Below, in pieces: positions 1-20,000 of a stretch of 20,000 bases of DNA. This stretch comes from Catajapyx aquilonaris (lineage: Eukaryota), in NCBI GenBank assembly GCA_000934665.2, contig KZ538311.1, positions 107,129 to 127,128 of the forward strand. The letters are read 5' to 3'. The position numbers and the translations under genes were made by a program. Each line of letters begins with the position of its first letter. Within the stretch, counting starts at the first letter, position 1. Below the pieces are notes generated by a model. That model worked only from the letters and a program-made list of their open reading frames with translations. It was not told where the DNA came from and made no database searches.

Positions 1-847
1 CCCATTAATTGCCTAATTATAGGGAAATGATCTAATTACACATTTTCATTACAAATCCCGGGTACGGTCCAAGGAGAGCAACAGCTTTATTATTCATTAC
101 ACGGCTCCAAACCACGCATATGTTTCGGGCCCCACAGATTGTGTAATAAGAGAAATGCGTTCTGTTTTTTTTGTGATCCTCTCCCCAACGCAGAGGCGGC
201 ATAAATCCAGTGCTCACGACCCTGCAATTGGATGGTGGGCGTAATAATAAATAAGATGGGGGGAGATCCGGTTTGCGCTATCCGAACACCATCATGATGA
301 GCATAAATCTGAGGGCTCTTCTTCTCCCGGAAAAAAATATCCTTCCTGCGCTGCGTAGGCTTAGGAAGCAATTGCTACCAACGCCTGCATGGGCCTTCCC
401 AATCTCATTGAAGAGGAGTTTTTAAAGGTGGGTGGGGAAAGTCCTTACCAACAACCTTAGAAGCATGCTCATTAATCACAGGGTGGTGACTGTCAAGCCT
501 TTTCCTTGCCCCCTCATGCCACCAACTCCATTTCTTATCCCTTCAAGACAGATGGAGTTCCACTTTGATCAGTCTTTTGGGAGGGGGGGAGAGCCCGAAA
601 CAAGGACCAGGCTTCCCTTCCGAAAAGTTTGGGAGTGACGGTGTTGCCAAATTTTTTTTGCAGGGTGCTAGGTGCAATTAACGGTGACGATGAGCATATC
701 CTTCGGGGCAGGAGAGGAAACTTTTCGGAGGCTACAAAGGCTCCAAAACTTATTTTTGGAAATTAAATTTTTGAGGGTGTTGCAAGCCAAGGGGTTTTGA
801 CAGGCTCGAGCTACAAACGGCATCACGAAATGTTCCCATTGAGTTAC

Positions 848-868
848 AGAGAGAAAGAGAGAGAGAGA
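848..868. repeat. (GA)n microsatellite, interrupted
   Basis: AGAGAGAAAGAGAGAGAGAGA. Confidence 0.8.
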
Positions 869-1712
869 AAAAATGGGGGCGAGTGGGATAAAAATCGATT
901 CGAGTATAGTTGGCAATTTCGACATGTCGAGTATTGGGGGGAAAAAGGGGGGGCTGTCAATTTGCATTCAACTATGAAAGCCATCAGCAGTTTGATGCCA
1001 GGCTATACACAAAAATCTGATTTAATCTAGAAAAAAAGGGGGGCAGGTTGGGAATTCGCGTTTTAAAAGTACGTCAGAGTGAATTACACTTCAAAATTTG
1101 CAGTACATGGCTGAAGTAACGCTGTATTGGTAAAACACTTGTACGTCAATCAGTTTATTACTTGCTGTATCATGAACAGTTTTTCAGAGTTAAAGACTGA
1201 TGCCATAGTATGTTTCTGAAGCTTGCGGAAGTGTGAACGAAATTAAAATTAACATATACTTTTCGTACTGAAACTGTATAAGAGAAACTGAGATTATCGG
1301 TTCCGACAGTAAACCACAAAAAATGCGCTTATAAAGTTACTTTATTTTACCATTCTCACTTTGCACGTACAATTTTCCACCTAATGCCGTCAAAGTATAA
1401 CTAATGAGCGGAAAATAATATCCCGAAAAAACGCCGGTTTACAATCGGAAGGGTCGCCACAAAATTCTCCTGTTGTTCATCAACCCTTCCCCCTTTAAAA
1501 TGAGAGCACTTTTTTATCTTCATTATTGCAATGATCCCTTTGTGAGCACCGGCGCTGCATACTTGAAGCGAGTGAATCATTCAAGGGTTGTTAGGCGGTG
1601 CCTATGCAGCCTCACCCTGCTCTCTTAGCACAGATTGGGGAATACTTGGAGTGGCCTCTCAGAGGCTCGTTTTCAACACATGAATGTGTTGTTTTTTTTC
1701 ATCCACTTTCTT

Positions 1713-1728
1713 TGCCCTCTAGTGGTCA
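1713..1728 (-). promoter_or_regulatory. Candidate CTCF-binding site
   Basis: Minus strand TGACCACTAGAGGGCA closely matches the CTCF core CCASYAGRKGGCR. Motif match only. Confidence 0.45.
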
Positions 1729-2147
1729 ATTTTGGCCGACTTCGGGGCACCTTTAGCCTCATCCTACTTGATAAGAGACCCTAATTTGAATCCATTATCC
1801 TGTATATTCAGAGCCACCAACAATCCTTTCCTGTTCGGCAGGAAGTCTGCTTGCAAGGGGCTCATTCCTTCCATATGGCAGGACTACCATTAATTTTATT
1901 TTACAGTGAATCGTAGCGGAAAAAATGTGGTCCTCACGCTGAATGGACCCAACCCCACCTTGGGAATGGCAGTGGTGCAGAAAATCGTAAAGTTGGGGGG
2001 GCCTTATCTGCATAGCAATGGTACCGTAGTGCAGCTGACACAAGTGCAGATATCCGACAGAAAAGCATCCGGGCCAACGGGTTAGTTCGGGCCCCACTTA
2101 CAACCATCTAGTGACCTTACAACCGCCCCAAGGATTTACATCAGAGT

Positions 2148-2183
2148 CCCCCCNNNNNNNNNNNNNNNNCCCCCCCCCCCCCC
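2148..2183. other. Assembly gap (16 N, 2154-2169) inside a poly-C tract
   Basis: C6, N16, C14, then an A-run. Confidence 0.97.
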
Positions 2184-2859
2184 AAAAAAAAAGTGATCGA
2201 TTATTCCTTTACGGGTAGCGAAATGAGAGTTGAGACCTACTATCTGGACGGGCGCCTTATACGATTGCTGTCGTTCAACTGCAAGTAAGGTGGGGGGGTA
2301 GAAAGGATCGAAAGTGGAAGCCATCTTAAAAGCTTTCCCTAGAGCCAAGAATCAAGATCCTGATGGAAGATCGGAGACTCTATACTATATACCTCCCCGC
2401 TTTAATTGTGTACGTGGATTTCCTTAGAGACGTTGCTTGTTGCCTTTTCTCAACTTTGTACCGCGCCGCCTCTCTCTAACTCAGCTTCGATTTACACTCT
2501 GAAATTACATCACGTGCGCCAGAGATAGAGTTGCCAAGAGGTGTCAGATAATGGCCGTCTGATAACAGTGTCAACCACCAGAGAGTTTTTATAAGGGAGG
2601 ATAATGAGGTGTGTTCGAAGGTGTCCTATGCGTCCGTTTAGGTCGTGCCATCAAGCAAGATGTGGCGTCGTTACAAGCACTGTGAGGGAATGGAGTTGTG
2701 TTAGAGACACTGGGAGGTTTTCCAAGAATTCTTGGGTGCTCGTTGGGTTGCATCATGCAAGGATGAAACAAAGCGTTAAAAATTACATCTCACATTTGAT
2801 TCAGCAGTGGATTCCAATTATTTCGGTAACGAATCTTTGAAGACCAATAATAATTGACA

Positions 2860-2919
2860 TCTCTACATAAAGCAAGAGTTCACGCTCAGAATTTGTTGGT
2901 GTTGTTACGACACACCCTG
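2860..2919. mobile_element. Right end remnant of a CAGGGTG-type Tc1/mariner MITE; inner boundary uncertain
   Basis: ACACCCTG followed by TA (2920-2921). The reverse complement CAGGGTGT-N15-ACAAATT has the same layout as CAGGGTGT-N15-ACAAACT at 19802. No clear left end found. Confidence 0.4.
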
Positions 2920-4615
2920 TACAGTTCAAAAAGGGCCGAACTTCTTATCTGCTGTGCCCATCAAGCACTTTTCTCTCCCAAAATGACCGCTGAAGCATCG
3001 CGCTCGTTAAGGCAGGGCAAAAGGCTCGAGTAAACCCCCTCCCGCCCTTCTGAATGACCACAAGTGGACTCCAGGTTTTTCATTATGGCGTCGACCGGAC
3101 CCCCCTCTAGTAATAATCATGGAGGATGTGATAAAGCTGGGTGCGAGCTATAAAAACCGCACAAGTGGAGCAAACGGTGGAAGGGAATAAGAAAACCTCC
3201 CCCCTTCTTCATCCAACCAACCCCACTCTCTTCTTCCAAAGTGATTGACGGTTTTGGCCGCCTTGTAATTCAGCTCACAAGCAGCCTAGGCAAGGTTTAA
3301 AGTTCGAGAGAAGGGAAAATGTGGCACGCTGATTTCCATGGGAGTAATCAGAGTGCGCAGTCTTGAAAGCCAAGGAAGAAGAGAGGGTGTGGGTAGGGAG
3401 AGGGGATGTTATAGCGGTCCTGTGGTAATGGAGGCGATTCAGAGTAGCGATACGATCTTGGGGAGAACAAAGTTCGTTAGACTGGGGAGGGGGGAGGGGG
3501 AAAGAAGAAAGAAAGAAGAAGGATATAGGGACGCTTTTGCTGAGACATGACTATTGTTTTATCCGTGAAAGTGGTGTGTATACAGCATCGGCGCCTCCGA
3601 TGCCAGCAAGGAAAGTCAAGGGATTTGTCTTGGTGGACATCTTTGAGTGGGACCGAAAACAGAAGAAGAATGCAGGACCTGAGTATACACCGGTGCACAA
3701 AACATTCAATAGGATTTGGAATTTTGCTGCCCTAAAAAGTTATTTAGAGCACGTACATTTGTACACATGCATCATGCTACATTCAAAACCAGGATGTGCA
3801 AACAGCTGTTTGACTTCCACAGCTATTAGTTCGCATTTAGGTATGAACAAAGCCTGCTGTGCCACTATACGTATTATGTAACTAATTTTAGACATTTTTG
3901 TGGGGATGCGAATTTTTATTAGTCGTACAGTACCAGCAGCTCAGAAAAATAATGTTGCATGATGCCACTCAACCCGGCTGAGTGCCACGTTATTAATTTT
4001 GTGTGCAGTAACTCAGCAGTATTGTAGGTTTATAGGACTGCCTTTCAAACTTGTCTCCGATATACCGAAGAACGATGTTGACGTCAATATCGCAAAGTCT
4101 GACCAAAAACCGGGTGTATTTACGTTGGACATATCAGAGACGGATCCTTTTTCTGTGTGTAAAGAACCCATTTCCTATATTATATGAGTCGCATCAAAGG
4201 GCTCTAAATAAAAAAAAAGGAGAAGCTTTCTCTCTATCAACTGCTAGACATCATGGCTTTAGGCTACAGAAGAGGAATGAGTGGCGTTTCCTTCTCTCGC
4301 TTCTGGTTTTTTCTCTCTCCGTTTGACCTCCCAGTTTCGACACACAACACTGTAACTTCACAATAGGGTATAGCTACTTGAAGAGAAAAGCGCAAGGTAT
4401 TATGTGGACTTTCTTGCCTTTCCCGTTTCGAAAAGTTTGGCTGAAAGGCAAGGCAATTAGGAGATCCGTAGAAAAGCTCTGTCGTTGAAAGAAGCCCGAG
4501 TCTTTAAAAAAGCGAGTGTTCATTCCTGTATTCAAAATTGCAGCCTTTTAGTTCAGCTTTCTTATATACGCGCATATATTTATGCACTACCAATTTTCAT
4601 GGGAAAATGAAACAG

Positions 4616-4892
4616 AAAATTATTCATTCCTCTGCCTAATTTTATTCGTTTATTCAATCGTTTTATTCAATTCGTATCAGCACATAAAATTATTCATTTC
4701 TCTATATATTTTATTTACCTCGTATCAGTGTATGAAATCATTCTCTTCGTCGTATTATAGGGCATAAAATATCAAATTTTGTGCGATTGCGATTACGCTC
4801 GATTCATGAGCTGGCTCGACTCTAATTAGACGAATTTTATTCCGACAATGAATTCCTGGAGTAAAGGGAGCTCGACAATTTCTCCAGCCCTG
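4616..4892. mobile_element. Probable hAT-like element end with degenerate subterminal tandem repeats
   Basis: AAAATTATTCATT(C/T)CTCT...TCGTATCAG units start at 4616 and 4686, with multiple TATTC and GCTCGA motifs. Ends in CCAGCCCTG (4884-4892; reverse complement CAGGGCTGG, a hAT-like terminus). Partner end not found. Confidence 0.35.
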
Positions 4893-7800
4893 ATTGCCGC
4901 TGACAGCCGGAATAAGGCAACCTGGAAGCTTACAGGCCGTTAACTAGACGCAGCCTTGTTTTTACGACTTCTACTCTCTCCAGAAAGCATCATGCAGACG
5001 CCTACAAAAGGTGTATAAGTCGACTCAGAAAGACTCTTCCTTTTTTTTTTGAGGCCCACTTTCTGCATTGCGGAGAGCATTGTTACAAGTCGTAAAAATC
5101 GAGGGGGTGATTTACACTGATCTCCTTCTATTTTTGCACTTTGTCAATATTTTTCGAGTCCATCCGATATATCCAAGGCCTTGAATGGTAGCTTCGATCC
5201 AAAATGAGACATTGCAAATAGGGTGGGTGGCATTATATCAGGAAAAAAAAGGGGGCGACTTGGAAGGAGGGATCTGAAGCATCCAAGTGCAAGTGATAGG
5301 TGTCGTGTGTAAATCGCAAGGAGCGGCTTTTGGCCAACGTGGTTTTGGCAAAGTGGACTGCTCCTCTTTTTTTGTGCAAAATTCCAAGAGGCATTGTATA
5401 CTATCGACGTTTACTTAGAACGATGCACTAATTACGCTGCTAAATGAGGGATGTAAAATTATACTAATTATGCCCCCCCATGGCCTGAAAAAAAAGAATA
5501 TGTAATATATTCGGTCATTTTGGGGGAGGACGAATCTTTTTTGGCAGCATCACAAAGGGGAGGGGGGTGATTAATTCGTATTTTAACCCCGGATTTGACA
5601 CAGGGAACTCTGCCAGAATTTGGCTCAGGGTACACCAAAGAAGAAGTTGCGGGAGGAGATAAATGTAATACCTTTTGTCAGCCCTTTCGGCTGGAGCAAT
5701 AAAAATCGCGGTTACGTAAAGTCGTTCCTGGTGACGTCATCTGAGCCTGGGGATTTTTGCATATCCTTGCCCCGAGAATGGCGCTATTCTGTTGACGCTT
5801 TACTATTGATTTTGCAATGAAAATAGGCACGCACGTAGCTGCATTAATTTTGATGCCCCCTCCTCCCCACCACCCTCCACATCCTCTTACTAGAAATTCA
5901 ATATCAGAATATCTGGCAGTACCTTTTTCCCCAATGATACTCATAGGAATATCTCTAATACTGATGCAAGGAAATGGCAGGGTTCGCTTTCATTTCCTGC
6001 ATCTCTTCAGTGTCTGATACTAAAAATGATGGTAACGACATTTGGAGCGATTTTTTTTAAAAAAAGTGGTGTGGTGAATCAGTTAAATACACTTTATTTC
6101 ATAGTGTGAGGGAAGCTGTGCAGATTCTACTGTGGGTGTATCTATGCAGTTCTATCCCCCTCTGGCCGAGAGTGGAACGGGCAAGCCTTCCGCTCAATAT
6201 AGGGAAAGGAAGGCCGAGGAGCAAAAAGTGATTCATGACAGTCCAACTACATAAGATGTGGCCCCAGACCAGAAGGAGCTAGGAAAAGAGAGAGAAAGAG
6301 AAGGGGGTGAAAGGATAGTAAAGAAAGAAAGAAAGAAGTGATGGCAGATGCTTCTCTGGACCAGGGAAGCTGGCGACGGCCCCTGGAGAAGAGCACCACC
6401 CCCCTTCGGATTGTGACAAATCAGGACGCGTTACTTTTTGTCACCTCTGATTCTTGACAGGTGTCCAGGATGTCGTCCTGGAGAATGCGAGCCTTTCTCT
6501 CGGGAGGTTGTGGTGGCGCTTCGACGTCGTTTCGGTCAAGAAGAAAAGAGGAGCAAAAAAAAAATTTGATTCAGACATTCATCAAACAACTCCGAAGATG
6601 GCTTGATCATGTTACAGTTTACAGAAAATGTGTAGGATTTCCGTGCAAAAAAAATATTTGCTCCTTCATTCAATATTAGCAATAAATCTGCTAAAGAGTT
6701 AGTTCTGGCAGTCAGATCAGATATAAACATAATGAGTGGAATTTTTCTGAGCTAGCAGTAACTATAGCAGTGGGACCCAATATCAATGAGGTTTTTTTTT
6801 AAAGAGGCGCATAATTATTCTTGGCATTTCAGAAACCAATACATTTTACTTTGACATCATGATCTGCCTAACATATAATTTATTATGATAATTATGTGAT
6901 TTTAATTAGTTATTTTTGATTTGGCGTCAAGCAGTAGCATGTTATCAATATTATTGTGTGAGCCGGCTGAAGAAAGACCAACTATACCAAGTTTTTCAAG
7001 AGAGCAAGTTAAAGTTACGGCTGCTGTCTGATACTGTTTAAAAATTATTTAAAATGCTGCTATAAATAGGTTTATTCTAGAAAAGTGTGAATAAAGTAGG
7101 ATAGCTGAAACCAGTGTCCGTGTTAATAATGCAACCTATAATTCAGTGAACCCTGAATATAACGGAATTTCTCCGGCCTGTTAAATTTTCTTTAATTAAT
7201 AGTACTCCGTTTCATGTTACACGAGAATTGCACTGAAATCCTGGGTCGAGACCAAACAAAAATTCAAGCTTCACGCACCTTCATGTCTCTAATTCACTCA
7301 AATCGGCCCTGCATTTGAAAACGCAATTTATGTAAACACGAATATGTTTGCCAGGAATTATGAATGCTGTTTATATCACCCTTATGTATTTTGCGTTGTT
7401 GCCAGTGTATGTATACCATGCGTTCCTAACAATGAGGATTTCATGCATGAATTGTGTGGCTGTTTATTCGTGCTGCATAATTTGACGCCTGTACTACAGT
7501 TCGCCCCACTTTTATTAATGATCCGCAACGAGGGAGACACCATCAGCGTTAAGTTAAATGCTTACCAATTAGTCAAGTGTGTTAGCACTTCAACGTTAGT
7601 GTGACTTGTCAACACGGGACAGGAAACCCAAATTATAATTCAATATTTGCCAAACGTCGCTCGTACTTCACTCCTGTGTCAGGTCATAGGATTCTCATAA
7701 AGCCTGCATTATGTTTTGCACCGCATCCTTTTTTTTCGGATGCTGAAATTACGATGTACTGTACGTATCGCAACCATTTACAATTTTAATACGCTGCCAA

Positions 7801-10800
7801 TGAAAATACGGCCGATTTAATGAGGATGACCGTGGGAATAATACAAACACCCAAACTCCCGCAACACCACATTTTGAGGTACATAAGGATCATTCGGCGG
7901 CATGTCATATACTCTCATTTTTGGTCGGAGGAACTAATCGACGTAATTTTGCTAATTACCACCGGATTGACCTGCACGTGAAATAATGGCGTATTGTTGC
8001 TGTGGTAAACTGGCTTAAATGTATGATGATGAGGAGCCGCTTTTGCTGGCGAAATTATTGAAACGCATTATCCGAGAGATGCAGTGGTTCATTCCAGAGC
8101 GTGACCGAAAATTGGTGTGTTGGGAGGACCCTCCAGATTTATGCAGGCTCCTCCAGGAATATTGTTGTCGTGTGACCCACATGGTGCTCCAGCACTTAGC
8201 CATAAACCATAGTTAATGTTTGCCAACGGTTTCCCCAAAACCCCGATATTTTATTGATACTAAGCTCAAACCGCTGTACATTTCCGAGGCACTGACTTTA
8301 AATGACGTACAGAAAAAAAAACTGCTTCGCTTGGTAACTGTGGAAATCTAACAGACCGCAAAAATGTTGGGCAAGCACCGAATCTGGATCAGAACCTAGA
8401 TTTTTCCTCTCAAGAAAACCTCTCAAGGACAAGCTCGTAAAAAACCAGAGAGAGAAGTTTGTTGTGCACCCACCCACCCACTGAAACGTCCTATCCAATA
8501 CGGCCTGGGTTGTATACATGTAGAGCGACATCCAACTCTTCAGGGGAATTCCTCAATTAGTTCCCATCACCAGCAGGATAGGAATGATGCCAATCAGACA
8601 GGATAAGAGCCCAGTCGAAATCTTCTGGTAGTTCAGAACCTTTGGATCTATGTTAGACTGGAACAATAATTGGCTGGATTATAGCAAAACCTTCATTGTG
8701 ACAACTTGCAGTCCCCCTAATAACAATGTGTCCACTCCCATCCCACGTGATGGTGGAAACGTACTCTGCTGGTCTGAGGTCTGATGGCAGCAGCTTCCTC
8801 TCAGAAAGTGAGCCTCTGGATCGATGGCGGCCTACATCGGGTCTCGGGCCGTGACAGAGCATACATTTGCTTCCGTTCAAAAGTGTCTGCCTGAATACCA
8901 AGAGAGAATCATAATACAAAAAGGAGGGGTTGGACCAGCAGATGAAAAATGGCCACGAAAAATGAGTGGCCCGGGCGAAAGAGACCAAGAAAGTAGTAGC
9001 TAAAGAGGTGGAGATGCCATCGGAGGAAAAACCAGACATTCTTACATGTTATCAGCTCATTTTTTTAAATATATTTTAAGAGATAAGCTCATCCTACAGA
9101 TAAGCCTAATCATCCGAGCTGTTGAATACGATTCTGTCCAGATTTTATAGGACACTGTTAGTACTGATAATAGACAGGTCTTGCGGATTAGTGGGAGTGG
9201 TTTGGTGTTTTTTTTTCTGTTGAAGGAACGAAAGGGCCTGGTTTTCTGCAGGGAGGTAAGGATGCCAAGGAAGGAGGCCTTCCATACTAGCTGGCAGACT
9301 GCCAAATGGTTCCTTTCCGCCTCCGCCAAAACCTTCACCCCTTTTACCCCACCCACCCCCACACCATAGACCTACTTTGCTCCACATCACTATTTATCCA
9401 GGAGGATACTACCTAGAGCTGTTGCTCCAAAAGCAGACTGGATCCATTGCTAGTGTTTGCAAAAGCGGGAGGGGGGGCGGGAGGGTACAGTACGGTGCAA
9501 AAAGGTACATATAATGTGGCAGGCCGGATCAATCAATAGATTTAGGCGAATACATTATCCCTGCCCACTAACGACATCGGGGGCCATTGTTGCGGAAACC
9601 GTCTTACAAAATGAGCAGAAACGTTATGGGATAATCGTCCATTAGGTGGAAATGATTTATTCTGAAGGATTTTAAAAAAAAGGAGAGAAGAAGATGGTGG
9701 AAATGGGGCTGAATGCACTCCATCTCTGTCAGTCCATAAATAACCTGGAGGCTTGGAAATTAAAAATCGAGAACTAAGGTTCGATTATCGTCATGGCCAA
9801 TTTTGCCTTGTACCCATTTTTCACGCTGCGATGCGGCATCCAGCAGCGTATATATACGCCGTTTTCTAGATTTTCTGCAAATGATAACCTCCTCACCTCG
9901 TCGCTTTGTAAACGTCGCTCTTTTTTTCCCCCCTATAGCTCTCTCGCACTCTTCATGTTTGCGCTTCGGTGGTACAGAGTTAATGAACCGGGTGATTGCT
10001 TCGACATTTTTTGCTGGGAACATACGATATTAGTTGCTACATAAATGGCTGTATTTTTATGTAATATTATTGTGATATGTCACAAACTATAGGAAAAAAT
10101 AGCCTAGTTATTTTAGTAGGTCGTATGAATTAGGCCACATCAATTTGCAAGGATCCGAGCACTTCTTGCTGCAATCCGACACAATTCTGCAAAATGTGAA
10201 GCCCTTTTCTGCACCCGCAAAAAAAAAGAAAAGTTGTTTTCAGTGGTATTTGCCCCGAGTGTTATCCCTGAAAGGAAAGAATATTGCAACCGACATTCCA
10301 ATTAGCCTTTTTCCCCGCTCCCTTACTCCCGCAGAAACTTACTTTTAGACGATATTTATATTCTTGCCGCAGAAATTGTGTCGCTCCCCTTCTTCTTGCT
10401 TGTGTGCCAATTATTGTCACAAACATGAAAATATTGCGCTGACTGTGAATGGAGCTGGAGAAAAGATTTTTCCCTCGGGCACTGAAAAAAAGAAAAAAAG
10501 AAGAAGATAAGGCTTGGGAAGTGCAGAGGGGGCGAAGAGTCCCTTATGATAAAGCCTCCCAACTTCTGACGATCTATGCCATCGGAGTCTACTATTTACC
10601 TATCTGCAGGGGTCGGGGGTCGGAGGGGGGAATGGGGGGGAAAAAAATCTGCGGGGGAATATTTTTCGCTAGTGCCGCTAATGGCCCTTTCCTTTCCCAC
10701 AGACTCTTTGAGGAGGGAAGAGATTTTTCAACAACAATAGTAGAGAAAGTAATCTTTCCGTGTCATTAACAACACCTCCTTTTACCTAAAGCTTTGTTAT

Positions 10801-10838
10801 AATACAGGCATAGATATTTTAATATCTATGAATACAGG
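10801..10838. mobile_element. Minimal DNA-transposon footprint: 8-bp direct repeats flanking two 10-bp inverted termini (P/hAT-like)
   Basis: AATACAGG (10801-10808), CATAGATATT, TT, AATATCTATG, AATACAGG (10831-10838). Confidence 0.6.
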
Positions 10839-11253
10839 CATGATCGTTGGGTCCACATCATTGTTGGTATATAATTGCGAAACATGTATTTTTGCGGTAC
10901 ATGCGGCCCTTAGCGGCATTGTTGGATTTAATTTTGATCGTGCCAATTAGTGCGATGTCGACTGCGGACAATAGGCAAGCGATAACAAGAGATTGTGACA
11001 TGTGCCGTGATTAATGGGACTGCTGTAATATTTTGAGCTGAAAAGGATACTTTATCCATTAGTTGTGCCGGTGATGAATAGCCCTGTAATGTACTGCGTA
11101 TCGCTGGTCATGGTGAAGCCGATTGGAAAACGCAATAGAGAAGCAGGATGTCAGTTAATTATTTATATGAAAAACAAGCCGACATGAACATTATTTATTG
11201 TAAACGTCCTGTTAATTTTGATTCGATGCTATATGTACTATAGTACCTACATA

Positions 11254-11655
11254 AGGGTGCTTCTATAATGCATCCCAAGCATGTGAATTCAGAACATAGT
11301 TTTGGAGTAATTTAGACATAATTAGAATACCCACGGAATAACTTTCTCAAAAGGTAGGCGATGACCTCTGCCCCTTACAGTCACACTAAGCGATCTGATT
11401 GGTGGAGCAGAGGAGGGGATCTGCTCCACCAATCAGAATGGTGGATACAGTGTGGTCCATAAGAATTGCTCTTTTGAAACCCTTGAGTGTATTGCTTAAC
11501 CACAGAGGTCGCAATATTTAGGACATGCCTCTTTTTTTTTTTTGAAATGTTAGGCTATGGGAAGCCATTTTATAATAAATTATTTCACAAACTAAAAATT
11601 ATTCATTTATTCATTTTTAAGTTATTAGCTTCAATTTGTTTTTAGAAGCACCCTG
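11254..11655. mobile_element. ~400-bp MITE, Tc1/mariner-like, with internal palindrome
   Basis: 12-bp terminal inverted repeat AGGGTGCTTCTA (11254-11265) / TAGAAGCACCCT (11643-11654, followed by G, i.e. a CAGGGTG end). AT-rich non-coding interior with an 18-bp perfect inverted repeat and a GACCTCTG/CAGAGGTC pair. The TA target duplication is imperfect. Confidence 0.6.
11394..11437. repeat. Perfect 18-bp inverted repeat with 8-nt spacer
   Basis: TCTGATTGGTGGAGCAGA (11394-11411), GGAGGGGA, TCTGCTCCACCAATCAGA (11420-11437). Confidence 0.95.
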
Positions 11656-12642
11656 TGTATGTTATCACTGCCTAGCTACATTTCGCCTATTTACACCTTT
11701 ACGAAGTGAGCTGCTCCAAAAAAAAATATGCGAAAATCCGCATCAAAAATTGAGGCCATCCGGAGCCCTTTGATTGAGCGAAACCATGACGTGACCCCGG
11801 GAAATGCACATGGACAGAGGTTGCATGGTGCAGCGAGTATGTGCCGCAGATATTTCCGGTAAAGGCCCCGGAACAATGACGTTATGAGATGAGGACGTGT
11901 TGAAGTGATGGGAACCCTCCCCACACCCTCCCATTCATCCACAACACACCACTTATCCTTGCGTGTTTGCGTGCAATGGGCGGCCAGATGAATTTCCATT
12001 GTCTACCAGGCCCCGCCGTATCCTATTTGACAGGGCTCATAGGCTTTGCGGCCTGTTTGAGGCCACCGGTCCATAAAAAATTTTCCGGAGCAAGCTGGGC
12101 CAACCAACCCAAAGCCCCATCCAATCTCCTTAATTTCGGCCATTTTCAGTAGGAAAACCGGATACATGTACACGTACGCGTCTAATACTATCATAGATTG
12201 GACCCTCTTGGCCTGCACCTCCCCCAACATTTGCATTCGTACACGGCAATTGGCCAGAGTTATTGCCGATATCCAAGGGGGTGGGAAGTGTTTTAATGCA
12301 TGCAAATGAGGCAGTACAAAACTGGCGATTAGGGAGTTTAACCACTCCTAATGGATTTCATAAAGGTGGGGGTACAAATCCGCAACGGAAGGTTTGAGGA
12401 GGGGCCGGAAGAGTGAAGCGGTTAATGATGGTCGTTCTGCACGGCTAAGTTCATATAATGGCACTCTATAATACTGTCGCGGTCCAAAGTACGGCGGATT
12501 TCGCATAGAGACGACGACGGGCTGCGTTTTATGCAATCTGGCAACACCGGAGATCTGCTATTGGTGGGAGCGGCGCATGCGCATCGAGTTAGCAACAGTA
12601 CGCAGGCGCAACCGCAAAGGATCTCTTCCAGGATTGATATCG

Positions 12643-12694
12643 GTATCGATACTTAGACCATCGATACTTAGACTGGTGTTCTAAGTATCGATAC
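12643..12694. repeat. Direct and inverted copies of ATCGATACTTAGA (contain DRE TATCGATA / CGATA motifs)
   Basis: GTATCGATACTTAGAC (12643-12658), ATCGATACTTAGAC (12660-12673) and inverted TCTAAGTATCGATAC (12680-12694). Confidence 0.85.
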
Positions 12695-15111
12695 AGTGCA
12701 ATATTAGACGGAAAATGTGTCATTTTTCCAATATTACTTTTGAAAACATGAACTTGAAGCTCATAAATATTTTCAGCACCTATAGGCTTTTCCTTCTGCC
12801 CGGGAAACGACAACTTATCCCGTCCTTAGAGTAATGCTTCTGTGACCCGATAGGTCCTCGTCCATAAATGAATAATACGTGTACTCTAATGGTGGGACAA
12901 CCATTGTAAAGTTACGCCGCGTCAGCCGAAAAAAAAAGACGGTAATGCAGTGTCACGCCCTGCGAATATCCTTATAACAAGGGGAGGGCCTTATAACTGT
13001 AGGAAATGGAAGTAGTAGAGGAGGCCCTGCGAGACAAAAGTTGTCAAGAAAACTCGGCTGAATTGTACACGAACAAAGGGACTTTTGCGCAAAAATTGTC
13101 CCGAATGCTGCGCGTCCATATTTCGTCCCCTTTCGTACTTTTTTTCTGACTCTTTTTTTTCTTGCAGCTTGGATCTCACTTGAAAACTGGAAGCTTGCAG
13201 GCGCGTTGCCAGAAAGATTTTCCCTGCACGCAGACTCAGTCTTAGAGGAGCCCAGGAGACGCCCGTGGGTGGCAGCTCAGGATGGAAGGCAGCACAAGAG
13301 GCCCTTTAAAAAAGCATCCTCACTTTACGTTGCTTCTTGCCCTTTTTTCTCTCTCTTGCCTTGGAGAGAGGAAATGGATGTGGTTGAGACAGGCCAAGAG
13401 CCTAGAGATATCTTCTCCTTTCCTTCAGCACCTGGGACTCAATGAAAAGATATGTGCTGGCCTAGGTGACATGATGATTGACGTGGCTGCAGATATTGCG
13501 GTTCCAAATTGCAGTTTGTGGAATGTTCCAAGGTCGGGATTTGCTCAATCTGACGTTTGCTGGTGGCAAATTGCGACAGTAGTGTTACATCAATGTTTCA
13601 AGTGGCAAGGAGTAAATTTTTATGAAGCTTCTTCTTCACAACTTCTTTATCCGTACCAAGAGCTAATAACTCTTGTCCGTACTAATGTACCCGTTGCCAA
13701 AATGGGGGAAAACCTGCAATCAGTATGACTGACAATTAAACAATTATTTAATGAGATGGCCCGCCGATTTGCCACGTAGTATTTTTTTCACGTATAGATG
13801 GAGCACTCTCTCTCTCTGCAGTCTGCACACTCCCGCCACCGTGCGAGAGATAGCGGTACTATAAGACATGCGACGGAGAGAATAAGCCTGTTAGGAGAAA
13901 GATACCTCCTCATCAGTGTGTAACAAGTATTTTTCATTTAATTTTGTCTCACCCTGTCGTGTGCATTGTCAGCCCATGTTAAACAACGATTGCAGGACAA
14001 TGAATCGGATGCTACCACACTGTGCAGAAGTGGCGACTTTTGAGCTTCTGTTTGCTCGCGAGTTGGACATAAAACTGGCTGCACAATCGAGTGTCTGGGG
14101 GGAAAAACTCGCTGACCTGTAACGTAGAGCTGAAGCACGGCAGCACATAAAGGCAAGCACTTTGAGCCAGGAGCAAAAACCTGTCCGCCAGTTATCGGGG
14201 TCCTTGCAGCACAGTGCACCTTTACTTGGTGCATTGCGCATCCCACTTGCGTCAACAAACATTACGAATCATTGTAACCCGTCAGTTCTGGAGATGGAAA
14301 CTCTGTGAGTGATGGGTAACAAAACTTTGGGGAGAAAAATTGAAGTCGTCAGCTCGCTGTTTCCAGCAAAAAGAGGCTGGAAATGATGGGCTTAATCCAC
14401 TTTACTAAACGGGAATGGGAAGCGATGAAATGTGATTAGCCGGCTAACCTGACACCTGCCTTGTCCGTTGATTGCGTAATTTTTGCCACTGCTGGTGTGT
14501 GTTCTCAGGTGGTTTCTTTCCCTCCTTCCCCCTCCCACCCACCCACTCAGCCCTCCCCTCCCACTCTCTCACTGAAAAGCATCGATCGTCCTGAGGCCGC
14601 ATCATCCACGTAAGCCATCAACTTGCCCCAGATTCCCAACTGCTTGTCTTTGGGACTGTTTAATTGGGCGCAGGCCGGGCACAGAATAGCCCCGCTTCGT
14701 TTGTCAATTTGCCCGCGCGCCATAGCGCATGTTAAACCCTTATAAAATAATTGTCTCAGCGGGAGATCACAACCGCTGCCGCATTTAACCAGGCGCCATT
14801 TTGGGGGGTGCGACGAGCCTTGTCCTCAACCACGAATTTCGGTGTTGTAGCAACCAAGAACACTCTGTACATATTCAAGCAGTCCTGTAAAGCACTCTCT
14901 CGGTGCCTCAGTTACTTAACACTGTTCACAATGTATCTTCCCAGATGGCCATTCTTGTGTACGTGTTAAAAATAAGGTGTTTTGATCAAAATAAAATTTT
15001 GAAGATGGCTACAAAAATTATTTTCGAATGCAGAATGATCTAAGCATATGATTGGAAAGAGAGCTGTTACGTGTACGTATGTTTAATTTGTCATGCGTAA
15101 TTATTGTAAAG

Positions 15112-15381
15112 AGTGGAAGAGCTTGAAAACATGTCCTGAAAAGCAGAGTTGAGGAGTGCCCGAAAGTATAGCATGTAAGAGACTTAAGAAAATGAGCCTA
15201 GTATGAAACTAAGGAGAAGCTAAAGAAAGAGTGGAACTATAAAAAGTGGCTAAAGAGTCTCCATGTAAGAAAGTACCTACTCTTGCAACTACTTTTCACG
15301 TTGTTTCTAACTATATTTTCAACTTTTCCAGCTTTCATCTAAGGCTATTTTCATAGCAAGTTTGTTCAAGCCCTTGTCACT
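15112..15381. repeat. Decayed long inverted repeat (foldback)
   Basis: Arm 15188-15258 (GAAAATGAGCCTAGTATGAAACTAAGGAGAA...AAGAGT) aligns by eye with the reverse complement of 15279-15352 (GAAAATAGCCTTAGATGAAAGCTGGAAAA...AAGAGT). Outer pair GAGCTTGAA (15119-15127) / TTCAAGCCC (15365-15373). Purine-to-pyrimidine skew flips at about 15275. Confidence 0.7.
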
Positions 15382-16517
15382 GGGTTTTAATTTTTGTTAT
15401 TGCTTCCAATTAAGATTATTAGCTGACTTCACTTTAAAACATTTCCCCCAGCATCTCGCAATAATTGGCCAATCAACCACGTTTTAAAACACACTGTGAG
15501 TGAACATCCCCAGCCAGGACACACCGTCTCATTTAACTAAGTTAGTCGCAGTGCCACATCCGGCACTTAGCCCCCCCGACGAGTCGTTCCCAACCACCAC
15601 GTCCACTTGCCATCATTTTGGGTGCAAACCGCCCTCTGCAAGTGCATTTTGCATATTTCTGGCCATCCTCTCCCAGTGTGCTCCTCCACATCTGATAGTC
15701 ACGCGTCCCATTTCTGGCGTGTCGGCTATCGGGCCATTCCAGCAGCCTCCACCATTTTTCCCTTGGGGACCTTACCCAGCCTCAAGTATATACACTCTCT
15801 GTATAGTACAGCAGTAAGGTGTGGGTGGAACGAGATGGATTCCGGGGATAGGGGAGCCGGGGAAAAGCCTAGCCCATTACTAGCTTGCGGTTGTGCTGCT
15901 TTCCCCTGGAGAGCATAGCTCGACACAAACCTCGGAGACAAAAGCAAGAGGAGCCGCCAGAAATGCAGCTCACACTCGGAGAAAGAGACCTCCCACCGTT
16001 ATGTGAGCGGTACATTTCCTTAATTACTGCCTGGCTGCACTATACACTCGCCTGCAGGTTACGCTGCTTATTGCATTCCAAAAATTGAAAATGTAGGAGG
16101 GGGAAAAGGGGGCGGGTCTGGTGCATTGTGTTTGAGTTTATGCAATCTTAAAATATGGGGCTCTAGGGAAATGGGAGTATTTCATATGTTAGAGGCTTGT
16201 TTTTGAGTGCAAAGGTAATTGGCCCATTCTTTGTTGGAATATTCCATGCAAAGATGGAGCTAGATTTGTGTTTACGAGGTGTGATAATGCACGGAGTCGT
16301 CTGAGTGATGTAACAATGTAATTTCGACTTTTCTAACAATGGTTCGCTGCAGAGAAATTGGCTTTTATTATTTTACATCAATTTTAGCAAAATATTGATG
16401 TAAATAAATAAATGTAACATGGACAATCTCTCTGAAAAGACAGAAAAACTTTTTCCGTTTCGTAAGGAGGGCAGGCATTTTAGGGCAATATTTTCCTAAA
16501 ATTCGAGGGGTCTCTGC

Positions 16518-16569
16518 AATGAAGGGTTCTATGCACTTACCTGGTTCATACTGAGGAGAACCCTTCATT
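16518..16569. repeat. Perfect 13-bp inverted repeat with 26-nt loop
   Basis: AATGAAGGGTTCT (16518-16530) / AGAACCCTTCATT (16557-16569). Imperfect outer extension GGGG/CCCC and AAAATT/AATTTT to about 16498-16587. Confidence 0.9.
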
Positions 16570-17868
16570 TATAAATCCCCAAATTTTTTCGCTCCGAATT
16601 GGGGAGAACTGATTGGGCCATTTGAGGCCTGACTTGGAATATTTACTGGGTCGATTTTTTTTTTGTGAGTCGCGGTCGCCCTTCGACCTGGCTCTCATTG
16701 GCGGGGTCAACCATGTTTGCAGTTGCCGAAATTAATGGCTTCCTCCCGCACACATTTCAGGAGCTGAGCAGAATCGATGCTGAGACGCCTTCTCTCTTCC
16801 CTGACGGCTTGGTGAGTAATATTTATTTGACGTCGACGTAGCAATCGCGTCCGAAACGGGGCACAAAAGTCGACATTTATTTATGGACAGGTCAACACTA
16901 AAGTCACCATAAAGGGACAGGATTGATTGATAGCTGTACACTTTCGGCGGACTTTCGGGTCCAAACGTCTCGTACAAACTAATTTATATGTGTTGAAACT
17001 CCATCAGGCAATGTTGATCGTATATTGGTCAAAATTTTATCAAAAAATAATATTATAATCGTGTCACATATTCAACTCTACTGCACAAGCCCGTCATCCC
17101 CCTATTGATTAAAGTGACGAGTTTCAACCCGATGCTAATCGGCTGCGGAGGTCCTCTGTGGCTTGAAACGTCAACAGAACAGCGGTTTACATGACAGCTA
17201 TGTCGAATTTGGAAAACAGGTCGACCCGAAAAGAATTAATGTATTAAATACTTCCCGCCCCACGCAGAAAAAAAAGCGCAACTGACACCAATGAAATAGA
17301 GGACCCATTAAAATAATCCTGAAAATTACACTTGTCCATCTGAATAGATCGGACACATGTCTCCCAATATACATTCGAGTCGAAATAAGCACGTTAAGTT
17401 AGATCTATGTAACTCCTCCCTCTCCCTGTTTTTCTTTGGTGTCGACCCGATGGAATTAGTCTCTGGGAGAGAAATGAGATTGACGAGAGGTCTGTGACGT
17501 CATCCTCCCCTCTCCTCCTTCCCCCATCGCGCAATCTCATTCCTCCACTGCGGCTTTCTGCCCTGATTGACACTCCGTAGCCTTCCGATTTTTCTCTCTT
17601 TTTTGGAGGACCTTGGCGAGCCAGCCAGGCAAATGGAGCTGCTCCTTAGACTTTTGGTCCAAAATTTCAGGCTCCCAAAATCAGAGCTCTACTCAGGGAG
17701 ATAACAAATGCAAAACGCCAACTTTTGGACGCCCCCGGTTTGGTCCAAGCTGTTGCCTCAGGGTCAAGTGTTTGCAGAGTTTCGTGTTACATCCAAAGCC
17801 AGCAGAGGAAGGAGGGAGAATGGGGACAAAGTTTGTCGGAATTATTTTCTGCAAAAAAAAAGCACAAA

Positions 17869-17885
17869 GAGGAGGAGGAGGAGGA
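17869..17885. repeat. (GAG)n short trinucleotide repeat
   Basis: GAGGAGGAGGAGGAGGA. Confidence 0.8.
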
Positions 17886-18428
17886 ACAATCGGATGTGCG
17901 GATGACTCGAATTACGACTTAGGCTCTACCCACTTTGTGGCCACTAACATCCGACGATGCCAAACATTTCGTGCGAAATGGCAGAGCACACAGAAACACT
18001 TGTGCACACTAATTTCATAAAGATGGTCACACGGCAGTATATAGTTCCTGAAAGTAATGTTAGCCTACATCATCCAGTATGATCCGGTTTTGTAATCAGA
18101 TTTGGCTGGGTAGGCCCTGTACGGGGACTTGCCTGCTGGAGAAACTTTTATATTATTATTATTATGCAAAAGTTTTCCCTCCCATCGTGTCCTCCGCCGA
18201 GGCTCTTTGATATGTGCGAGGAATTTTGATCGCGGACCGACAATAGCCGCGGATTAAAACGGCGATCGGGCTTGAGTTCAGGTTAAACACAGTTCTTCTC
18301 CTTCGCCTTGGCTAATCCCAACGTGTTTGGCACGGGCTTGGAAGATCTTCAGTTTGGATTCGGGAGATAAATTATTTATGAACCCGCCTGAAGGGTGGGA
18401 GGAGGAGCAAAGAGACGTATATTTTATG

Positions 18429-18454
18429 GAGAAAGAGAAAGAGAGAGAGAGAGA
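18429..18454. repeat. (GA)n microsatellite, interrupted
   Basis: GAGAAAGAGAAAGAGAGAGAGAGAGA. Confidence 0.85.
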
Positions 18455-18825
18455 AAAAAAGTTTCTGCCAGGGTTTCAGCCTGGAATAACTGTAGTTTAA
18501 AGGATAACGCGGGTTGATCTGTTATGTCTGATAGAAGCTGTCTTCGTACTTGGAAGCTAAGGGCCTAAGGGTCTGGAGATGAGTTACAAGCTACAGATTT
18601 TATGTGCAATTTTTGGTGCAGTGTCCGACTAGTTGATTTATACTATTGAAAGGCTGGCGGTGCAGTGCATAAATATCAAAACTAGAGCATACATTGCAAT
18701 TTTTAAATTAAATTTTGTGCCTGCATCAGTTCCTATTAAATTAAATGTTAAGTGTACTCCCAAGTGTGCTGCTTAGGAGTGCAACTATCTAGTTTGGGTT
18801 AATAGCAGTATGACTTTCAAGTGAA

Positions 18826-18896
18826 GCATCGGTGGTTCAGTGGTAGAATGCTCGCCTGCCACGCGGGCGACCCGGGTTCGATTCCCGGCCGATGCA
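18826..18896 (+). tRNA. tRNA-Gly-GCC: tRNA-Gly (anticodon GCC), canonical intronless eukaryotic cytosolic tRNA gene
   Basis: 71-nt cloverleaf: acceptor GCATCGG/CCGATGC + A73, D arm GTTC/GAAT, anticodon arm CTCGC-CT-GCC-AC-GCGGG (GCC at 18858-18860), T arm CCGGG-TTCGATT-CCCGG. A box TGGTTCAGTGG and B box GGTTCGATTCC are present and CCA is not encoded. From memory, nearly identical to insect tRNA-Gly-GCC. Confidence 0.98.
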
Positions 18897-18901
18897 ACTG
18901 C

Positions 18902-18910
18902 TTTCTTTTT
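18902..18910 (+). terminator. RNA polymerase III oligo(T) terminator of tRNA-Gly
   Basis: TTTCTTTTT begins 6 nt after the discriminator; T5 at 18906-18910. Confidence 0.75.
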
Positions 18911-19283
18911 CTCTCTCTCCATCACTTTGTTTTGCCTCTATTGAAGCGTGGAATTTACAGTTTCACAGCCGATGTATTGTCTATGGTCTGAAGGGAATTA
19001 TCTATAATGTATTCGTTGCTCTTTTTAAACAGATCCTCTTGAAGATGTAGTATATCTGAATTTTTATGTTAATTTCAAAGCGGAAATATGCAAATTGGCC
19101 ACCTTATGGGAATTTATCATGAAAGAAACTAATATTTATCAAGTACTTTCAATTTTCACAGTTTCAGGAAGCATTCTGTAGTGTTTACAGCTACACGAGA
19201 ACTCCCGTCGTAGGAGAGTATAAAGGCACTCTTGTAATCTTTGCATATGAAGGCGTTTATGCCAGAGGTAGCTTTCAAGTGAA

Positions 19284-19378
19284 GCGTCGGTGGTTCAGTG
19301 GTAGAATGCTCGTGGATCCTGTCCGGCCGGCAGGATCACCACCCTCGAGCGACCCGGGTTCGATTCCCGGCCGACGTA
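19284..19378 (+). ncRNA. tRNA-Gly-derived tRNA-like gene with the anticodon loop replaced by an extended hairpin (no canonical anticodon); functional ncRNA or structured pseudogene
   Basis: 58/62 nt identical to 18826-18896 outside positions 31-39. Acceptor GCGTCGG/CCGACGT + A; D and T arms and A/B boxes intact. Between CTCG (19309-19312) and CGAG (19346-19349) are 33 nt instead of 9, including GATCCTG/CAGGATC pairing. Confidence 0.85.
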
Positions 19379-19380
19379 AC

Positions 19381-19385
19381 TTTTT
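19381..19385 (+). terminator. RNA polymerase III oligo(T) terminator of the tRNA-like gene
   Basis: TTTTT after a 2-nt trailer (AC) following the discriminator A19378. Confidence 0.75.
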
Positions 19386-19801
19386 CATTCAAGTTTCAGT
19401 TACCAAGCTGGTTGAGTAGGTACTGTTTTTAACTTTTTTTTGCGATTTGTTGTTATATTATGATAGTGTGAACAACGGATATGACAATGGGACACAAGCT
19501 AAGTTACAGCTACAGCTGTGGAACAGTAGCCTAACGAGTACAGGAGAAATGATAATTTTACAACGTCTACAAAATAATAATTGAACAACCTAGCTGGAAA
19601 TAAATGTGGAAAGTATACACATGTTCACTTAAGTAATAGCCTACACTTATTGTTTGTATGGACCTATAGAGTATCAATCATTATGTAATTATTACGAAAA
19701 AATTACCGGTATTGTGCACCATAACAACGGGGTCTTAGCCTTGGCCTGGGATTTGGGTAATTTTTTAGCCTACACGAATAGCTCCACCACATAGCCCTAT
19801 A

Positions 19802-20000
19802 CAGGGTGTAAATGAATTCGATCGACAAACTTGTAGGGGTAATAGAGGGGACCAAGACAAGTATTTTTGACATAGGAACCCGTGTCCGGAAACGCCATCT
19901 AGAGGGGGTTCATAGACAAGGAACGGGTGCGCTCAGACGCGTCAGGCGAGAGGCGCTAAGAGAGCGGACTGTTTTGTTGATAGAGGACGCGCAGTTGTTG
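19802..20000. mobile_element. Left end of a Tc1/mariner-type non-autonomous element (MITE), running out of the window
   Basis: TA (19800-19801) followed by CAGGGTGT..., a terminus type common in arthropod TcMar MITEs, with a TA target site. The other end is not in the window. Confidence 0.6.

Follow-up and report, generated by a model that had tools for sequence, protein, structure and literature searches.

Engineered recombinant tRNA scaffolds, named in PMC3401473, keep the body of a tRNA and carry, in place of its anticodon loop, a helix that stacks on the anticodon stem. Such scaffolds are man-made and have been shown to accumulate. The Arabidopsis GUT15 tRNA-like RNA and mascRNA have a tRNA-like top half but no canonical anticodon stem-loop. 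They are cut from Pol II transcripts, are conserved or experimentally detected and, as described in PMC6152437, are handled by the tRNA end-processing enzymes, including CCA addition. Among eukaryotic tRNA genes, the account in PMC4090602 places almost all introns at 37/38, has insertions elsewhere generally taken as marks of pseudogenes, and gives nucleomorphs and a red alga alone as the reported sources of non-canonical introns. The natural non-canonical tRNAs treated in PMC7609411 have anticodon stems of at most 6 bp or stems with small breaks, and our search of the open-access literature found no naturally occurring eukaryotic tRNA gene with a long hairpin in the place of its anticodon loop.

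The locus described here, a tRNA-Gly(GCC)-derived paralogue, has in its predicted fold the architecture of the engineered scaffolds. It shares with GUT15 and mascRNA the tRNA-like top half and the lack of a canonical anticodon stem-loop, but it is a stand-alone Pol III-type gene, and against the mascRNA model it scores 13.7 bits (threshold 42.5). Like eukaryotic nuclear tRNA pseudogenes and tRNA-like genes, it is tRNA-derived, has kept its internal promoter, has lost the canonical anticodon stem-loop and receives a lowered score or an unusual isotype from gene finders. Unlike them, it carries its damage as one clean replacement, the remainder of the gene being identical to its neighbor at 58 of 62 bases with all pairs kept, and the replacement, which is palindromic, lengthens the anticodon arm without breaking the fold. 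We consider it probable, with appreciable room for doubt, that the paralogue is a recently disabled copy of a tRNA-Gly(GCC) gene that carries a palindromic repair-type insert and is probably still a Pol III unit.

Two tRNA-type genes lie in the window, by which we mean the whole 20,000-nt stretch of DNA that was analysed, both on the plus strand and with a spacing of 387 nt. The first (18826..18896, 71 nt) is a canonical tRNA-Gly(GCC) gene, recognized by ARAGORN and by Rfam (RF00005, 66.6 bits) and with a fold z of -2.45, and we use it as the reference copy. The second (19284..19378, 95 nt) is the paralogue. Its acceptor, D and T arms are intact, its minimum-energy fold is a cloverleaf, and it matches RF00005 at 49.4 bits (gathering threshold 29; E 4.5e-08) with model positions 1-71 covered, so that by fold, arms and score it is a member of the Rfam tRNA family; its tRNA homology is far beyond chance. 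Families other than tRNA gave at best 16 bits or less on either strand of the paralogue, against thresholds of 42-80. The two tRNA matches are also the only Rfam families in the window (1-20000), which shows no sign of protein coding, with just five open frames of at least 120 aa and Pfam matches for none of the 16 longest, and which holds a single small tandem repeat at 12645-12673.

The initial annotation described the A box, the B box, A73 and a T5 terminator as intact in the paralogue, and all four were found by sequence inspection and script comparison. The A-box-like internal promoter element (19291..19301, plus strand) is the same as that of the canonical gene, and the B box follows at 19357..19367 on the same strand. 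The distance between the starts of the two boxes is 66 nt in the paralogue versus 42 nt in the canonical gene; 66 nt is within the range of intron-bearing genes. A T5 run that is the likely Pol III terminator stands 2 nt past the end of the paralogue (19381..19385, plus strand), and the likely terminator of the canonical gene is the T5 run at 18906..18910 on the same strand. Directly 5' of each gene is the 12-nt block CTTTCAAGTGAA, at 18814..18825 for the canonical gene and at 19272..19283 for the paralogue (both plus strand; 12 of 12 bases match). Past 12 nt upstream and 3 nt downstream the flanks of the two genes cannot be aligned, and this, together with their alike bodies, indicates that the two genes are old paralogues whose bodies, as in ordinary tRNA families, stayed alike as long as each was a working tRNA. 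The shared block could be a family-specific Pol III upstream or start-site element, or else the edge of a short gene-conversion tract. By our own arithmetic, 15 unchanged flank bases are expected about one-third of the time at the body divergence of 6.5 %, and the intact boxes, terminator and 12 upstream bases are equally compatible with a recent knockout and with a gene still in use. The tetranucleotide AACT stands directly 3' of both genes. Around the canonical gene we also observed a 27-nt imperfect inverted repeat (18432-18458 versus 18902-18928, 78 % complementary), whose arms are purine-rich and (GA)n-like upstream and pyrimidine-rich and (CT)n-like downstream, and which may be mere low-complexity sequence.

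The large difference between the two genes lies in the anticodon arm, where the 9 nt of positions 31-39, that is, the anticodon loop and its closing pair, have been exchanged for a 33-nt segment (19313..19345, plus strand), the net gain of 24 nt being that first reported. The Rfam alignment of the paralogue likewise has 33 nt in place of nine model positions, and the rest of the 71 are aligned. Within the segment, self reverse-complement alignment reveals a near-perfect DNA palindrome (19315..19337, plus strand), symmetric at 22 of 23 nt with one extra T and centered on the self-complementary CCGGCCGG. In the palindromic register there are 11 Watson-Crick pairs and no G-U pair. The core has a self reverse-complement score of 18 against a shuffle mean of 6.6, a score reached by one of 5000 shuffles (P ~0.0002), and the palindromy of the insert is beyond chance.

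The insert has one copy in the 20-kb window, and a search of the window for its donor returned just chance matches of 9-10 nt. The 21-nt palindrome core had no match in the viral contigs and was not found printed in open-access papers. It had four matches in unrelated, mostly GC-rich prokaryote contigs, with an ARAGORN tRNA gene at none of the four loci, and we take these matches as chance. An apparent relic of the old loop in the insert (CCTG and then CCAC, in the old order) was not counted: at least two shared 4-mers occur in 28-40 % of shuffles, and the ordered pair, present in ~2 % of them, was picked post hoc.

A palindromic insert is reminiscent of paired terminal repeats, and the short direct repeat CTCG is found on each side of this one, features that would suit a SINE head, a miniature transposon or a transposon-excision footprint recurring in the genome. 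We regard such an origin as very improbable. A T5 run only 2 nt after A73 leaves no SINE body or tail, and the structure of a SINE is thus absent; the downstream sequence is unique in the window, and the insert is single-copy within those 20 kb. A clean transposon insertion with target duplication was also considered and rejected, since deletion of the insert together with one CTCG restores no tRNA.

Palindromes are prone to library and polymerase artefacts, and the insert could in principle be an artefact introduced during sequencing or assembly, or else an allele that is private to the sequenced individual or heterozygous in it. A 1-kb stretch of the region is mostly present (0.74-0.91 of sampled words) in only four sequencing runs, X1-X4, which come from one sample, S1, possibly the source of the assembly itself. 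The single run with the same species label from a different study (X24), a small one, holds next to none of the stretch, and 19 other runs hold 5-7 % of its sampled words, which we infer to be about the share of the canonical tRNA alone. Set against this, the four runs do carry most of the region, as measured by words over the 1-kb stretch as a whole and not by insert-specific ones, and the insert lies exactly in register in an otherwise intact gene that has three further base differences from its neighbor. The register and the further differences argue that the paralogue is not a collapsed or chimeric copy of the canonical gene, and we judge an artefact or a private allele to be unlikely.

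A functional tRNA-Gly(GCC) has a 5-bp anticodon stem and a 7-nt loop with U33 and the GCC anticodon, and C35, C36 and G1-C72 are given as part of the tRNA-Gly consensus and identity set in PMC9976931. The paralogue has no such loop: 33 nt stand in for positions 31-39, no anticodon loop presents C35 and C36, and a G1-U72 pair has taken the place of G1-C72. Both judgements of the initial annotation on this point, that the RNA is unable to decode and that the gene is not a normal intron-containing tRNA, hold up. Removal of 24 nt at 37/38 gives, as stated there, G32, G33, the anticodon AUC and a U31-U39 mismatch, and when every contiguous 24-nt excision from the 41-nt arm was made, none of the 18 products had U33. 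A canonical intron at 37/38 leaves positions 32-37 intact, and they are not intact here. Nor do the predicted folds hold a bulge-helix-bulge motif (a 3-nt bulge on each strand, with 4 bp between the two), because the predicted arm has no opposite-strand bulge pair.

ARAGORN labels the paralogue tRNA-Arg(cct), and one may ask whether it encodes a functional tRNA that has a non-canonical intron or an odd architecture, for example a tRNA-Arg(CCU) variant whose long variable arm is the second half of the insert or from which a short intron is excised. The heptamer AUCCUGU would then offer U33 and a purine at position 37. Such a molecule is extremely improbable, however. The ARAGORN models are a forced fit, needing either a broken D arm or a 3-nt 'intron' and an anticodon stem with a C-C mismatch, and both need a variable loop of ~26 nt. 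On ten enlarged tRNA-Gly(GCC) comparison loci the same program called Gly in 2 of 10, so its isotype call for the paralogue carries little weight. The excisions in register never yield U33, no bulge-helix-bulge is predicted, and non-canonical introns in eukaryotes have the narrow reported occurrence given above.

These comparison loci (L001-L010) came from public metagenome contigs, which were scanned for tRNA-Gly(GCC) bodies whose anticodon stem halves are 12-42 nt apart. All ten keep C31-A37, including U33 and GCC. In nine (L001-L005 and L007-L010), 14-27 extra nt stand directly after position 37, the standard intron position, and the tenth, L006, has a 9-nt tandem duplication and no intron. 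The nine intron-bearing genes resemble the paralogue in having the same or a near-same body and an enlarged anticodon region. They differ from it in that C31-A37 with U33 and GCC is retained and the extra bases follow position 37; none of this is kept in the paralogue. Replacement of the anticodon loop was thus seen in none of the ten enlarged metagenome genes, and the viral contigs scanned for enlarged tRNA-Gly genes returned no match.

Minimum-energy folding of the 95-mer leaves the acceptor, D and T arms in place and extends the anticodon arm. The base of this arm is predicted to have 5 bp (the 26-44 pair and 27-30/40-43) followed by a GG/CC step, and its top to be an 8-bp helix, AUCCUGUC/GGCAGGAU, closing a 5-nt loop. 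The unpaired bases of the arm are almost all on the 3' strand, with no more than a single unpaired U on the 5' strand in either minimum-energy fold. The arm first put forward, extended and with 3'-strand bulges, is therefore recovered in outline, and its exact pairing differs slightly from that of the minimum-energy fold. With the anticodon stem retained and a helix predicted in the loop's place, the molecule is of the scaffold type, a term we use as a working analogy and not for a curated family. The stability of the whole 95-mer is ordinary for its composition (z = -1.33; matched by 24 of 200 shuffles), as is that of the 41-nt arm alone (z = -1.33; 20 of 200 shuffles equal its folding energy). 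A palindrome of Watson-Crick pairs only, combined with an ordinary folding energy, points to an inverted duplication made at the DNA level where a break had occurred; nothing in it suggests that selection has built an RNA helix.

Outside the replaced segment, script comparison of the two genes shows four differences in 62 aligned bases, A3G, G42A, U70C and C72U in standard numbering, in exact agreement with the count and the preserved pairing claimed at first. As first described, A3-U70 has become G3-C70, a double compensatory change, U28-G42 has become U28-A42, and G1-C72 has become G1-U72; C2-G71 and A73 are unchanged. We simulated drift by placing four random substitutions over the 62 shared positions with varied transition bias. 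All 20 remaining pairs survived in 8-27 % of trials, the range reflecting the transition bias, and in 0.8-2.9 % all of them were kept and one pair or more was doubly compensated. Under drift, a set of substitutions that preserves pairing is thus unlikely to only a modest degree. The latter frequency makes a long neutral decay unlikely and leaves recent inactivation or structural constraint. The pair G3-C70 is also present in the intron-bearing tRNA-Gly(GCC) gene of L005, from an unrelated source and with an intact anticodon loop. The 3-70 pair thus varies among such genes, and the compensatory pair need not postdate the insert and may be ordinary isodecoder variation. The pairing-preserving changes can therefore date from the time when the paralogue was a working isodecoder. 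G42A adjoins the replaced segment and may belong to one event with it, and C72U, which removes G1-C72, looks more like relaxed constraint on a tRNA-Gly.

The initial annotation also held that structural selection acts on the paralogue in the role of scaffold or decoy RNA, and for this claim we find no support: the substitutions, at 0.8-2.9 % under drift, possibly preceded the insert, and the insert is a Watson-Crick DNA palindrome. There is no evidence of selection on the new arm itself. A selected, Pol III-made, tRNA-shaped noncoding RNA, that is, a natural tRNA scaffold, would nevertheless use the features described here to advantage. The tRNA body would give it transcription, end processing, CCA addition, export and stability, and the 15-bp arm with its self-complementary, GGCC-containing loop would be the functional part, conceivably binding a protein, dimerizing through its loop, diverting tRNA-binding factors as a decoy or giving rise to small RNA. 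An arm of ~15 bp with bulges is too short for a Dicer or Drosha substrate. The minimum-energy cloverleaf with its stacked, extended arm speaks for a selected RNA, as do the preservation of pairing by four of four substitutions and the intact boxes, terminator and upstream block. A precedent exists in the Arabidopsis tRNA-like RNA, which lacks a canonical anticodon stem-loop and is described as CCA-tailed and stable (PMC6152437). Yet the paralogue is a single locus, with no second copy in the window and no arm-bearing relative in the scans of metagenome, viral and prokaryote contigs, where loop replacement was seen in none of the ten enlarged metagenome tRNA-Gly genes, the viral contigs gave nothing and the four prokaryote matches to the core came with no tRNA call. 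It matches no Rfam family besides tRNA, its folding energy is ordinary, and its all-Watson-Crick palindrome is the mark of a one-step DNA event. We consider a selected RNA of this kind unlikely. The fuller scenario, in which this animal genome has evolved a Pol III-transcribed tRNA-scaffold gene whose RNA is end-processed, CCA-tailed, exported, uncharged and active through its arm, and whose substitutions, promoter and terminator reflect selection, we consider quite unlikely; the arm might then make the RNA a decoy, dimerizing or protein-binding, of the abundant pool of tRNA-Gly(GCC) or of the fragments derived from it.

A recently disabled gene copy, our preferred explanation, would have arisen when a eukaryotic (animal-type) tRNA-Gly(GCC) copy lost decoding through one complex event at the DNA level, in which the 9 nt of the anticodon loop and closing pair were exchanged for 33 nt with an inverted-duplication core. 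Error-prone repair of a break is the proposed route, by fold-back or snap-back synthesis or by the opening of a hairpin-capped end, with the right arm of the palindrome being a copy of the left arm made with two small slips. Templated inverted insertions of ~5-34 bp formed via fold-back at breaks are documented in yeast by PMC11724301, snap-back synthesis and related mechanisms are treated in PMC5728401, PMC2943611 and PMC11292364, and very high mutation rates are described for tRNA genes in PMC6130373. The insert resembles the fold-back products of PMC11724301 in size, which is within 5-34 bp, in its inverted duplication and in a GC-rich, self-complementary center able to prime. In contrast to such insertions, which copy sequence adjacent to the break, its left arm is not recognizable as old tRNA, and at least one more step is thus needed. 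As no template was found for the 5' part of the insert, the fold-back model covers only about half of it, and the first few bases of the left arm are left unaccounted for.

Judged by its sequence, the gene remains that of a working tRNA everywhere except in the anticodon arm, and its intact boxes and terminator make a Pol III transcription unit plausible. TFIIIC and Pol III would still transcribe the disabled copy, with Pol III stopping at the T5 run, and La, RNase P, RNase Z and the CCA-adding enzyme would still process the transcript. The acceptor/T domain that RNase P, RNase Z and the CCA-adding enzyme recognize is kept, from which we infer that processing would be intact. The product would be a cloverleaf RNA of ~98 nt with an anticodon arm ~10 bp too long for the ribosome. 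With no U33, no C35 and C36 in a 7-nt loop and a G1-U72 pair, charging by GlyRS should be poor or nil and the decoding center should be out of reach. Several features weigh against a disabled copy, namely the four substitutions that keep pairing, one pair being doubly compensatory, the intact promoter boxes, terminator and upstream block, the stacking of the new helix on the retained anticodon stem, and G42A, which turns U-G into U-A. In its favor is the occurrence of another indel-damaged tRNA-Gly(GCC) gene, that of L006, in a public contig.

Being tRNA-derived and unable to decode, the paralogue is most suitably classed as a tRNA pseudogene or tRNA-like gene of recent origin. Read in this ordinary way, it is a tidy single-event example of a palindromic repair product that knocks out a highly transcribed tRNA gene and yet leaves a complete Pol III unit. 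It also holds a warning for annotation, as Rfam still calls the paralogue a tRNA and ARAGORN gives it a false Arg(CCU) identity. Were its RNA to be stable and conserved, the locus would be nature's equivalent of the engineered tRNA scaffold and would reveal a new route from tRNA gene to noncoding RNA, of interest to tRNA biology and for RNA expression tools, a claim that present evidence does not justify.

The comparison genes have features of their own. In L006 (401-455, minus strand), the tandem duplication is of the anticodon stem's 3' strand together with the beginning of the variable region, and the locus, a further indel-damaged copy of tRNA-Gly(GCC) type, runs off the contig end. The gene in L005 (401-473) has a 27-nt intron and, besides G3-C70, further paired changes in the acceptor stem. 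The other eight, L001-L004 and L007-L010, lie in tRNA clusters that show parts of the order Gln, Glu, intron-bearing Gly(GCC) and then Asp on the opposite strand, all four genes being called in L001, L004 and L008 alone, and they are probably from one marine protist or algal lineage. Their Gly introns are 14-18 nt long and contain GCAG, a motif able to pair with the anticodon region and absent from the intron of L005.
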